Part shown: in pieces, positions 21,715-54,313 of the stretch | How positions within the stretch are numbered: the stretch's first letter is position 1 | Layout of the letters: each line of letters starts with the position of its first letter | Assembly (NCBI GenBank): GCA_951406725.2 | Contig: OX597822.1 | Span: forward strand, 104,904,001 to 104,968,000 | Length of the DNA: 64,000 bases | Source: Octopus vulgaris | Lineage: Eukaryota | Direction of reading: 5' to 3' | Notes under the pieces: generated by a model | What the model was told of the DNA's origin: nothing | Database searches by the model: none | What the model saw: the letters and a program-made list of their open reading frames with translations, nothing else | Translations under genes and position numbers: made by a program

Positions 21715-22559
21715 CTAGCAGAATTGCCCGGCGTTGCTCGGGGCTGAATTGCTTGAAAGTACTGTTAATGATTGCACTGAATTATGATGATTATTCAGGC
21801 AAATATTGAAATAAGCTTACGGTGGGAGATAAGGACTTAACGCCAAACGTGTGCCATTGCATTGTTTTGGGGGAACCAAATTTCTGATGAGCATTATAGG
21901 GGCACTAACTTTAAGTTTGAGAAAGTGTGGTGGTAGTCCGGGGTGCTCAAAGGAATTGAGTACCTCTATTGGATAGTTGATGACGTCCTCTGGGTCAGGA
22001 GTTGTATCGATAGACTGATATACATCGACTTCCCCAGGAATGAGTTTTAGCATTTCATCATTAATATGGTGAACAGTTTTATTCCTCGGGGCCAGTATAG
22101 CCTTTTTGCCAATCCAATCCATATTCTGATAATTAGCTTGCAAATCTGGGAACACTGCATCTCTGAGATCAGAAGGCGTCTTAACAATGGTACAAATGGA
22201 ATCGATGGCAATATTACCATTTTCATCCCCTGGTATTTTGCCTTCGCCAAGTGCAAGGAGGGTGTGAGGAAATGCTGGTGATGTGATATTACGTCGCATA
22301 TGAGCACGCATATTGGTGTGAAGTTTGAGAGTTACTTCCGTTTATTTTTAAAATATGCATTAAAATGGAAAAAAATGATGGTAAATTATTTGTAAAATCA
22401 TAGACTCATCGTAGACGCGCGCTAATACCCAGAAGGGCTCGATATGAATCACGACTATAAGATACCCGGTTTTGGTTAAACTGCATCGCAAAATGTGGGA
22501 GTAGTTAGGAATCTAAATCGGAGTAGACAGACACACAACCTTTCTTTTATATATAAATA
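21715..22559 (-). mobile_element. Helitron H1 internal-deletion derivative retaining a helicase fragment
   Basis: 3' CTAG with hairpin at 21715; H1 5' module at 22330-22559. Confidence 0.85.
21817..22325 (-). pseudogene. Helitron RepHel PIF1-like helicase C-terminal fragment
   Basis: LHTNMRA...AILAPRN..V..IN...LNSFEHPGLPPHFLKLKVSAPIMLIRNL...CNGTRL, classic Helitron PIF1 motifs. Confidence 0.92.
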
Positions 22560-41334: not shown

Positions 41335-41897
41335 ATTTTTATCGACTCGGAAAGGATGAAAGGCTACGTTGACCTCGGTGGTATATGAACCCAGAACATA
41401 AAGCTGGACGAAATACTGCTAAGCATGATGCCCAGCGTGTTAAAGATTCTTATTTCTTTATTGCCCACAAGGTGCTGCACACAGAGGGGACAAATAAGGA
41501 CAAACAAAAGGATTAAGTCGATTATATCGACCCCTTTGCGTAACTGGTACTTATTTAATCGACCCCGAAAGGATGGAAGGCAAACACAACATCGGCGGAA
41601 TTTGAACTCAGAACGCAGTGACAGACGAAATCCTGCTAAGCATTTCGCCCCGCGATCTAACGCTTCCTATTTCTTTATTGCCCACAAGGGGCTAAACATA
41701 CAGGGGACAAACAAGGACAGACAAAGGGATTAAGTCGATTATATCGACCCCAGTGCGTAACTGGTACTTATTTAATCGACCCCGAAAGGATGAAAGGCAA
41801 AGACAACCTCGGCGGAATTTGAACTCAAATCGTAGCGGCAGACGAAACACTGCTAAGCATTTCGGCCGACGTGCTAACGTTCTGCCAGCTCGCCGCC
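41335..41897 (-). mobile_element. Cluster of three SINE family A copies of differing divergence
   Basis: Copies at about 41335-41445, 41450-41665 and 41666-41897. Confidence 0.82.
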
Positions 41898-45025: not shown

Positions 45026-46151
45026 CAACATATATGTGTGCGAGCGTGTGTGTGTAAATTATAAATATATACATATATATATGTGTATATGTATTTATAT
45101 ATCTGTATACGTATTTCATTCTATCTCTTTACTTCACACTTTTCCCCAGTATATATATATATATATACAGAAGGATAGAGAGAGGGGGAAGCAGACAGAG
45201 AAAGCGGGAGAGAGAGGAAGAGAGAGATGGGAAGAGAAGGAGAGGGAAAGATTTTTAAATTCGGAAATTGCCAACTCAAGCAAGAACTTCCCTCACTCTG
45301 ATCATCTCATACAAGCATGGATGACGTTTACTAAAATCAAAGCAATCGATATGAACGCAGTATGATCAAACAGTTTGTTGTATGACGTTATATATATATC
45401 GACATCGACTGACTCATTGTCAACCGCTTAACCAATATCATCATGATTCAGAAGTAAAGGAGGAGAGGTTATATCTCACCTTTAAGTAGGTGCAGAACAC
45501 TGACTTCTACACATATTGGAATGCTACAACCGTAGAAAGAATTAGAACGGAAATCTGAGCAGATAATTCTTTATTTTCTCAGAGTTCGATAGTTACCAAA
45601 GTAGTGAAGTAGAACTATGAAGTGGAACTATGACCAATAAATTGTTTGTTGTTTTATTTTTATTTTATTTTATTATTTTTACATTTATTAAAAAAAATTC
45701 CTGTAAATCTAGTAGTCATGAGAGCAGATGTTAATTAAGGTAAAAAAATCGTCAGAAAATGAAAATTGCGGCGATCTTCGGAGGTCCACAGAATCAAGCC
45801 AAAAATATCACACATGCATTTAAGAATGTTATATACATACATACATACATACATACATACAAACATGCGTGCGCGTTTGTGGTTTTGCGTGTTTATACAT
45901 ATGTATATGATTAGAAATATGTGTACTCTGAAAGCAACCATAAAGGGCAACAACATCAGTTGACTTCGAGGGCCACCTCCCAAATGTTCTTGGCAATGAC
46001 TGCGAAGACACTGTTAAGAACACTCTTATACAATAATAATAAATTTTTAATCTATAACAGTATAGAGTAATCCATCAGATAAATATATTATTGCTCTTCT
46101 TATGACTGAACATAAAAACAAACATTAATATATACATACATACATATATAT

Positions 46152-46550
46152 GAAAATAATAGTTATCGCCATACTAATATGGCATTCTTATAAAAATAAG
46201 AATAAAGCTGTCCGCTTATTAGCTCCATGAGGCCATCGCCTTAAGTTAGCTATTTGATACACAAACTGTATCCATATAACCTTCGAACAAGGGAGGTCAG
46301 TCGCTCCACACTACTTGACCGGCAGCTACAGACGCGTTTCGGGGTATTGCCCCTTTTCAATGTAGCGTAGCCAGACCAGCCGGTCAAGTAGTGTGGAGCG
46401 ACTGACCTCCCTTGTTCGAAGGTTATATGGATACAGTTTGTGTATCAAATAGCTAACTTAAGGCGATGGCCTCATGGAGCTAATAAGCGGACAGCTTTAT
46501 TCTTATTTTTATAAGAATGCCATATTAGTATGGCGATAACTATTATTTTC
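46152..46550. repeat. Perfect 172 bp inverted repeat with a 55 bp loop, inside a (TA)n-flanked island
   Basis: Arms 46152-46323 and 46379-46550. Confidence 0.95.
46325..46366 (-). ncRNA. Minimal hammerhead ribozyme with a covarying U3-A8 core
   Basis: Minus strand gctaca-TTGAAAA-gggg caata cccc-GAAA-cgcg-TC-tgtagc. Confidence 0.8.
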
Positions 46551-46612
46551 CGGGAACGCTGCCGTTGTTCTCTTTTAGAGAGACTTAGTAATTTTAATAT
46601 TTCTATTACATA

Positions 46613-46682
<70 letters not shown>

Positions 46683-51614: not shown

Positions 51615-54313
51615 CAGGTAAGTTCGATTTTATGGCGTAAAAGATGTTGGTTATTCCAGGACTGTGTCTGTTAACGAACCGGAATCGTGTTCTCATTAAC
51701 TTTTTCTTTAGGTGTCCGTAGTTGGGTGATGTTCAGTTTCATCGCCTTTTTTAATTCCCTCATTAATTAATTAATCCTCAGGGGTGTTTCTGCGTTGCGA
51801 AGAAGCCTTCGAGCTCGTTGAGTCGGATTTCATGTATTTTTGGGGTCAGAAACTGTAGTACAAATACGTCTTACCATGCTGAATGGGATGCTTCATTTGA
51901 TGTATAATGGATGGTAAGAGCAGAAATTTAAATATTGATGTGCGTCACTTTTTTGTAAAATATATCTGTTGTGACGGTGGAGTTCAGTATTTTTATTTGG
52001 ATATCCAGGAATGGTAATTTATTGCAACTGGATTCTGCCGTGAATTTGAAGGATGGGTGAAGTGTGTTCAGTATATTGTTAAATATACTTAGGTTCTCCT
52101 TTGATCTTTGCCAAAAGATGAAGCAATCATCAAAGATGCTTTTCCACTTTTTAATGATATATTTCTGGTACTCCTGATCAAAATCTTTCTCTACTTCCTC
52201 ATAAAGTTTTTATTCCAAGTATCTCATGACCAATTTTGCCCATGAGGGTGCAAACTGCGTCCCCATAGCAGTGCCCTTTTATTTGTCGATATGTTTTATT
52301 ATCGAATTTAAAGGTATTTTATTCCTCAACCAAGAGTGTGGCCTCTACCCAGTGTTTGACTGCTTCTAGGCCTAAAGCCTGAGATATGTTGGTATAAACA
52401 TTGGTAACACCAAACTTGTAAGTATAGTACCTACTGGGACATTGGGTGTGATGTGCTGGATGAAATCTATGCCATCCCGTATATAATTGGGTATTAAAGG
52501 GCACAAATGTTTTAGGAGTATATCTAATAAATGACTTAGTTGGTGTGTTGGTGCTTGAGGTCCAGCAACTATGGGTCTCAGTTTGAGGTCGGTCAGCAGG
52601 CCTTAGTATTTTAATGTATTGGTTCTTCTGCTTATTTATGGCACTTTGTACTTCGGAACTTTTGTGGATTTTGGGCAATCCCTAGAAATTGCTCCCTTTG
52701 ATTACAGAGTTGCATTATATAAGCTTTCTCCTTGTCTGTGAAGGAATCTTGGTATTCATTGATTAGTGTTCTGATTTTACTCATTATTTTTTCTGGGTGT
52801 CTCGGTTCTTCCTTGTGTAGTAGGTGTGGTTGTTAAAATTTCCAATATTTATCTTTATAGTAGTCCTTGTTCATGATTACTATCGCACCTCCCTAATCGG
52901 CTTCTTTTACAATGGTTGAGTTGTCATTTTTCAGTGTTAGTAAGGTTTCTTTTTCTTCTTCACGAAGGTTTTATTTGCATCTGTAGGTATTTGGGGGAAA
53001 TTTTGAAATTCTGTCTATAGACACGTCTAAATATTTGTCATTCCCCTAGTAGGGGGTGAAGTGGGATTTATGTTTGACTATTGATTTATCATTTATATCC
53101 TTATTGCCAAATAATTCTATGAGTCGAATGTGGTGGTTAAAATGTTCAGTATCAGATTTCAGTTCAATGAGATTAGGGCTGGGTGTCGGGGTGAACTTCA
53201 AACATTTTAATTGACGGTTCATCTCATTTTTGATGAGGTTTCTATTTGACAAATTTATGATCTTCGAGTCTACGTGTTCTGTGTGCTCATTATAATTTTG
53301 TGTGGCCATTTTATGATTTCGGGGTTCTGCTTCTCATGTAAGCATGGTGTGGTTCATGTTCTTTGTACGAATTCCGTTGCTTATACGTTCTGTTTTCCTC
53401 CCATCTTCTATGTTTCTTGGACCATTCAGGATGTATGGGATTTATGGTTGTAAATCGTAGGTTTCTTGAGTTACTGTAGAGATTTTTCATAGTATGGATT
53501 CTGTGTTGTCCGTATTCTTTTTGTCTTTCTTCCCATGTATTCATCCATCTAGGGTACATGGAATTACGGGTTGGTGGTTGACTATATCTTATTTCTCTTT
53601 CATGTCTTTCCCCCATGAATTTATTCATCTAGGGCGTTTGATATTTTGGGTTGATGGTTGTCCTCTATAGCTCATGTGTTGGCTTATTGCAGCGTTATGT
53701 ATTGCAGAATCTGTTTCTAGTCTGTGCTTGGGGTGAGATGGAGGTCATTTCCACATATGTTCTTGGGTAACTAAGGTTCGATACCTTAGTCCGGTTCCTC
53801 TGTGTTAGGTGTATATGTTTATTTTCGACTTCCTCGTATTTTTTGTTGTTGAGGTGATTTCGTTTTCATAATGGATTTTTCTCCATAGCTTTTTGTTTCT
53901 CTTTTTCATGATTAGTGAACTTTCCACATTGTGATATTTCCCACATTTTTATGGATTTATCTTCTCGCTCTGAGCCTTCTTTCCATAGTTGTTGCAATTT
54001 TTCATGACATTTATTGTCACTTCGTTCGGCGATTTCAGAAAACATAACTGCATCAATAGTTTTTAGTTTCACTTCGTGTCCTATTTTTCGCGATTGAAAG
54101 AAAAAAATTCTGCTTCTAGTCGGCATAAAGCTAGGTTTGCACGTATCATTGTCTCTTCTAGTGATTCACTTCTTATTTCTTTCAGAAGAGATTTTCTGGG
54201 AAGGATTGGGCTTTCTTTACTTCGCCAATTCTGGTAGGTGTTCGCTGTATTGTAACATTTCTAATTCTAAATATAGCTCCAGTACCAGAAACATATACTT
54301 ATCTCTATAAATA

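Follow-up and report, generated by a model that had tools for sequence, protein, structure and literature searches.

The window, a stretch of 64,000 nucleotides from the genome of Octopus vulgaris, carries at 46152-46608 what is most probably (at roughly 0.8) a young insertion of a hammerhead-bearing 363-nt retrozyme, whose hairpin would have formed when a borrowed Penelope-like element (PLE) enzyme primed two cDNAs. The hairpin is likely to be a by-product of transposition and not a self-opening RNA device. Such a hairpin is ordinary for elements of this kind, and the U3-A8 core of its hammerhead has already been published. The new part is a rule by which the two ends of an insertion are paired.

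The host genome is 2.8 Gb in size and rich in microsatellites. The whole insertion lies in TA-rich DNA and is bracketed by a 12-bp target duplication. Its features are listed below, with unit positions counted from the first base 3′ of C17 of the hammerhead.

46141-46152, no strand: left copy of the target-site duplication (12 bp), the same 12-mer at both flanks
46152-46379, minus strand: arm 1, 228 nt, unit 315-363 then 1-179, 100% identical to the reference unit from L005
46379-46608, plus strand: arm 2, 230 nt, unit 8-237, 99.6% identical to the reference unit
46152-46550, no strand: inverted repeat of 172 bp with a 55-nt spacer, unit 8-179, covered by both arms
46325-46366, minus strand: type I hammerhead motif, recognised by its sequence, its predicted dimer fold and covariation across subfamilies
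46551-46608, plus strand: tail (58 nt), the unit sequence between the two 3′ end sites, on arm 2 only
46607-46618, no strand: right copy of the target-site duplication (12 bp), followed by (TA)n

The hairpin arms, 46152-46323 and 46379-46550, are 172 nt each and complementary at 172/172 positions. Together with the 55-nt loop and the U3-A8 hammerhead on the minus strand, they are exactly as an earlier note on this DNA had described them. Each arm holds less than one unit, and the two meet 5′ end to 5′ end at 46379. Arm 1 terminates at a short 3′ end (unit ~175) and arm 2 at a tailed 3′ end (unit ~238). The loop is the stretch covered by the minus arm only, and 46551-46608 is the stretch covered by the plus arm only. 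No host exon was recognised at the window among frames of at least 110 aa, a threshold that shorter exons fall below.

Over 227 nt, the window copy is 100% identical to five other copies of the family, which places it in the youngest sub-lineage. The note had read the perfect arms as the mark of a very recent event; the youth of the insertion holds, but the perfect arms are common in the family and are not a special sign of it. Arm divergence in the family averages 0.84%, identical arms were seen in 12 of 52 long overlaps, and a chance of about 0.24 is expected for no difference over 172 nt. Perfect arms therefore need no special explanation.

On the minus strand, helix I of the hammerhead (6 bp) pairs 46366-46361 with 46330-46325, the core UUGAAAA occupies 46360-46354 with U at position 3 and A at position 8, and helix II (4 bp) pairs 46353-46350 with 46344-46341. 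These are followed by GAA at 46340-46338, ACGCGU at 46337-46332 and C17 at 46331, with the predicted cut site between 46331 and 46330. All parts of the type I core were found (positions 3-9, G12-A13-A14, A15.1-U16.1, H17 and a Watson-Crick 3-8 pair), U3-A8 being the sole non-canonical feature. The U3-A8 pair is tolerated in vitro. Helix III consists only of the 6-nt palindrome ACGCGU, which the first reading had missed, as it had the 58-nt arm extension to 46608 and the target duplication. A descriptor with both stems and the palindromic helix III matched once in the window and never in 100 block-wise shuffles, and it revealed no second hammerhead in the 64-kb window. The Rfam hammerhead models gave no match, either at the gathering score or at E≤10, presumably because they expect C3-G8 and a longer helix III.

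For the monomer, the canonical fold reached -6.2 kcal/mol against -12.9 kcal/mol for the best fold, and no stable helix III was seen. The minimum-energy fold of two molecules was the canonical dimer, at -31.9 kcal/mol. The hammerhead is thus predicted to fit the dimer-type subclass. Since helix III is a 6-nt palindrome, the ribozyme is expected to act as a dimer, which makes self-opening of the loop unlikely.

The insertion is one of a family built from a head-to-tail, non-coding unit with a 363-nt period, with about 1,200 of its hammerheads spread over the genome. Close to the short 3′ end, a 26-mer has 2,358 genomic copies. Arms in the family reach 5.5 units and pass through the cut site. 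Folded as a circle, the unit gave z values of -7.3 and -5.1, none of 60 shuffles was as stable, and the ends were brought together. Its outer stem covaries, in a structure taken from the same alignment, and the unit has the fold of a highly structured monomer, with a conserved rod. A non-coding tandem unit within 150-400 nt, each with one type I hammerhead, is what is expected of a retrozyme; by these sequence tests, and following the reviews PMC6765202 and PMC11722881, the family belongs to the metazoan non-LTR retrozymes. It is likely to be a non-autonomous Penelope-like element. Between subfamilies A and B, unit 146-176 and unit 200-262 (window ~46517-46608) are near-invariant, with 29/31 and 61/63 identical positions, and the remainder is about 80% alike. 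These blocks surround the two 3′ end sites and are likely to be binding sites for a protein. No description of the 363-nt family was met among the papers listed for hammerheads and octopus.

Four subfamilies, 80-88% alike, were distinguished. Position 7 of the core is A, U, G or C according to subfamily, and positions 3 and 8 are U and A throughout. Among 230 parsed copies (5 others were unparsed), U stood at position 3 in 229 and A at position 8 in all 230; as the loci were chosen by patterns, the subfamily pattern is informative and the totals are not. The genome contains 892 exact copies of the 30-nt U3-A8 core, and 1,205 matches when positions 3, 7 and 8 and one stem base were left free. 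The C3-G8 version of the family core had no match in the assembly, so that the check on U3-A8 in other copies, proposed in the note, came out as retention. A looser C3-G8 pattern was discarded: the control had 8 matches and the pattern 19, of which a single one showed a helix II in place but no helix I. With positions 7 and 8 left free, A8 was present in all of the first 100 matches listed and C7 in 22 of them.

In the covariation alignment, 97.5% of cells were paired, with one two-sided pair change in each helix and none in slid controls; with 17 distinct rows from four related subfamilies, this set represents few independent events. The change in helix I passes through a G-U intermediate, helix III exchanges one palindrome for another, and the 3-8 pair is invariant. 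Selection on the hammerhead, which the note had suspected, is supported by the free position 7 and the covarying helices. The suggested ground for it, a compensatory double change at this locus, did not survive the comparison. The U3-A8 pair is ancestral and invariant across the four subfamilies; it was therefore inherited at this locus, with no fresh compensation. Judged by its presence in the four subfamilies and in autonomous PLEs, U3-A8 is old and lineage-wide in this genome. The variant is also known from the PLEs of Schistosoma mansoni (Cercyon), with about 1,300 hits, and the same paper predicts dimers and reports low activity for PLE hammerheads (PMC4209133). In our literature search, the term U3-A8 was found in that paper only.

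We then considered how insertions of the family are laid out. The sample was non-random: it was made up of the best matches to the window copy, followed by those places that were listed first for contigs 1 and 2. Insertions no more than 150 nt from a locus edge, duplicates and, for subfamily A, matches below 90% identity were dropped. Among 107 distinct insertions of subfamily A, 82 had two outward arms, none had inward arms and 25 had a single orientation. The 3′ ends cluster at unit ~175 (short) or ~238 (tailed), 63 nt apart. Where subfamily A insertions had two standard ends, 72 of 73 combined a short with a tailed end, and the lone exception rests on a 22-nt match. The same combination was found in 11/11 insertions of subfamily B, for which the query contained the tailed end, and in 15/16 of subfamilies C and D. 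In total, mixed ends were found in 98 of the 100 insertions whose ends were both standard, a count that leaves out 19 two-armed insertions with a non-standard end (9/82 in A, 4/15 in B and 6/22 in C and D).

TA-rich sequence flanked 164 of 189 3′ ends, and inner junctions overlapped by 2-6 nt in 47 of 80 cases. Target duplications of 12-14 bp were found in 10 of 15 informative insertions, lengths that may be a few bases too long, the search having extended into the element ends. Of the 72 mixed-end insertions, 57 were uninformative for duplications because they sit in pure TA. The family thus has the layout of PLEs: partial tandems, an inverted 5′-truncated copy, a one-sided tail, an AT-rich target and a duplication. 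The 5′ ends showed no significant accumulation at the cut site (13/187 within 8 nt, 8.2 expected, P = 0.07; 0/45 in subfamily B), and only 9/187 lay at unit 324-333, at the edge of helix I. A hot spot of 5′ truncation was found at unit 37-46, with 32/187 ends where 5.2 were expected. It corresponds to window ~46285-46294 and 46408-46417 and lies at a 6-nt palindrome inside a long conserved predicted stem.

The two arms of one insertion agree at 503/509 polymorphic cells, and all units of one insertion at 698/710, so they were copied from one template lineage. Fourteen rare variants were present in every covering unit of a single insertion; the 202 of 222 rare-variant cases restricted to one unit are expected from later mutation and are uninformative. 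In the older subfamily B, arm similarity was barely above background (2.7% within, 3.2% between). We infer a circular template; a homogeneous linear multimer would fit the shared haplotypes equally well. A dimeric template, considered for the alternating variants in L011 and L069, was rejected because these were inconsistent across sites. The lengths of the two arms do not correlate (rho 0.05, 70 pairs), and the 5′ starts of the arms are no closer than in permuted pairs (7/67 within 20 nt, 8.0 expected). In 28 of 67 insertions, each arm covers sequence that its partner does not, as is also the case in the window copy. At the level of sequence, mixed ends, shared haplotype and independent stops favour two coupled primings over fold-back self-priming.

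Published biochemistry fits such a reaction. According to PMC11167929, a purified PLE protein, for which a dimer is predicted, cuts both target strands in vitro and extends them; two internal RNA start sites for the RT bound the tail; these sites show no strand preference in vitro; and the hammerhead is dispensable for insertion. What the genomic count contributes is that both start sites are used in each event, one per side. We suppose that tandem copies would be transcribed, that two hammerheads would pair through the helix III palindrome and release monomers, and that the monomers would be ligated into circles. The two target strands would be nicked about 12 bp apart by the RT-GIY-YIG protein of a PLE, probably acting as a dimer. 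On the same RNA, unit ~175 would serve as the start of one cDNA and unit ~238 as that of the second. The cDNAs would halt at unrelated points and be joined via a few bases of microhomology. At the window, they would share 172 nt, and the 55 nt copied by one alone, including the hammerhead, would become the loop. For PLE integration at large, there is about an even chance that it is a coupled two-primer reaction, with an enzyme dimer, one fixed RT start per strand and one probably circular RNA. Neither this model nor a count of paired ends was found in our search of the main texts of openly available papers.

The same element might instead acquire its arms from one strand that folds back and primes itself, possibly on an antisense template, after which the endonuclease would trim the arms at different sites and leave the tail one-sided. 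Fold-back self-priming has been proposed for PLE inverted repeats (PMC3846280), and the tail has been attributed to resolution by the endonuclease (PMC8557442). It would account for identical haplotypes in both arms, and in 39/67 insertions one arm is indeed contained in the other, with 5′ starts within 20 nt in 7/67. However, it predicts similar arm lengths and nearby starts. The uncorrelated lengths and unmatched starts fit it poorly, as do the mutually non-contained arms, and only 7/67 pairs start within 60 nt in the same register. Both ends are, moreover, start sites of the RT in vitro (PMC11167929). We consider self-priming unlikely. Much less credit still is due to an assembly fold-back artefact, or to a MITE or DNA transposon with terminal inverted repeats. 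Perfect inverted arms would suit either, and inverted structures of PLEs are a known source of assembly problems (PMC8557442). But this is not a plain fold-back, a possibility that the note had wanted excluded: each arm has family sequence missing from its partner, the two flanks do not mirror each other, and there is a 12-bp direct duplication. In addition, the order of the parts recurs in 82 examples with other junctions, in which inner ends vary and tandem units are present. The fixed terminal repeats and fixed length of a MITE were not found, as arm lengths and inner ends vary and 25/107 insertions have a single orientation.

On a reading that follows the note, the locus would make a long dsRNA whose loop cuts itself open, the combination of hairpin and ribozyme being selected. 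Either strand is predicted to fold into the 172-bp hairpin, at about -345 kcal/mol, and the window hammerhead is intact, with the all-Watson-Crick helix I typical of its sub-lineage. Inside the hairpin, however, the canonical monomer fold is 8.5 kcal/mol less stable than the best one and has a probability of about 1e-7; the probability of a helix III pair is about 0, and helix I, which tends to slip register, is in register at 0.28. With this penalty and no second hammerhead in the window, opening of the loop by itself is predicted to be unfavourable. Loop content also varies between insertions, and the hammerhead in the loop is therefore an accident of where two copies stopped. No host exon was recognised among frames of at least 110 aa, and we regard a selected device as very improbable. 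Two cDNAs primed by a borrowed PLE enzyme remain our preferred reading, and we propose that the lone hammerhead of the window copy is a passenger that, on the modelled folds, would need a second molecule to cut.

The octopus family can be compared with four known systems. It resembles metazoan non-LTR retrozymes (Cervera and de la Pena 2020, PMC7229834; Li et al. 2026, bioRxiv 10.64898/2026.07.22.740005) in that its tandemly repeated unit is non-coding, falls within 150-400 nt and bears a single type I hammerhead, and in its larger target duplications, with PLEs in the same genome. GC below 50%, a strongly folded unit and dispersed copies are further likenesses. It differs in its U3-A8 core, and no sequence link to a PLE pLTR was found. 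Its insertions are mostly short, two-armed and inverted, with a PLE-type tail, features absent from the parts of the retrozyme descriptions compared. Circular retrozyme RNAs have been reported (PMC7229834), metazoan retrozymes are described as derived from PLEs, and 8 of 9 Xenopus retrozyme dimers were uncleaved in vitro (both Li et al. 2026). With PLE hammerheads (PMC4209133) the family shares U3-A8 covariation, a small palindromic helix III, a predicted dimer and motifs on opposite strands, 100-700 bp apart. In contrast to them, the octopus motif has a canonical type I helix I of 6 bp and helix II of 4 bp, lacks the extra base between 9 and 10.1, is very homogeneous and has a non-coding carrier.

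Endonuclease-bearing PLEs (Neptune/Nematis, Penelope/Poseidon) likewise have partial tandems, an inverted 5′-truncated copy and a tail at one end (PMC8557442, PMC3846280), as well as AT-rich or (TA)n targets, duplications of about 10 bp and two RT start sites (those papers and PMC11167929). Unlike these, the octopus unit has no ORF and its tail is 63 nt, and here the combination of short and tailed ends was counted, at 98/100.

In twin priming of LINE-1, primers from both target strands yield a 5′ inversion joined by microhomology. Two primers, two target strands and a microhomology joint are common to both systems. In the octopus family, however, the second start site is fixed, each arm terminates at a defined internal site, and the overlap of the two arms gives an inverted repeat.

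An intact young PLE family is present in the same genome (L164:1081-4784, L160-L171), with many copies of a 781-aa RT and GIY-YIG frame. It has a C-X4-C-X2-C linker, as in Neptune/Nematis, and an upstream frame of up to 479 aa without a convincing Pfam match. Its hammerhead is U3-A8 with a weak helix I, its two ends lie 40 nt apart and its targets are TA. The core and helix III of the hammerhead of retrozyme subfamily B are those of this PLE family. Published tails measure 30-40 nt, compared with 40 nt in the intact PLE family and 63 nt in the retrozyme. A screen of 62 loci, 60 of them selected by a GIY-YIG match, brought up no autonomous PLE that resembles the unit in sequence; for this, 150 of 6,136 GIY-YIG candidates were scored and 60 places compared. 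Several PLE families that we followed had similarity to the unit at chance level only, in AT-rich sequence. Two subfamily C cores 2.2 kb apart, which looked like pLTRs around an ORF, proved to be split by an unrelated insertion. At L245:1321-4483, a PLE of another family has a perfect 766-bp inverted repeat and a one-sided tail, which is the same layout on a coding element. Other PLE families have U3-A8 cores by eye. A candidate A3-U8 hammerhead was noticed by eye in one PLE family (L150 ~2045-2090), and U3-A8 with an altered GAAA box in the 3′ regions of L145 and L151, in another; each is a single observation.

The origin of PLE inverted repeats and tails is the next task according to PMC8557442, and self-priming was the proposal of PMC3846280. 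A young, short, high-copy family offers a countable rule by which the models can be told apart: mixed ends in 98/100, a single haplotype and stops that are independent. The rule links the mobility of retrozymes to PLE enzymes through the anatomy of insertions. If true, a coupled two-primer rule would explain the inverted repeats, one-sided tail and tandems of all endonuclease-bearing PLEs, and for proving coupled priming, the 363-nt retrozyme and its U3-A8 dimer hammerhead would serve as a minimal substrate. The four subfamilies form a natural series of U3-A8 hammerheads. Hundreds of near-perfect genomic hairpins could also supply dsRNA pathways, if they are transcribed.

Three further features of the window deserve mention. 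Decayed fragments of a Penelope-like RT, 37-38% identical to the intact 781-aa protein, lie on the minus strand at 51680-53264, about 5 kb from the insertion. A fragment of a Pif1 helicase 2B domain at 21817-22341, also on the minus strand, is probably a Helitron remnant. A 217-nt unit is repeated twice in tandem at 41337-41770, its copies being 80% alike.
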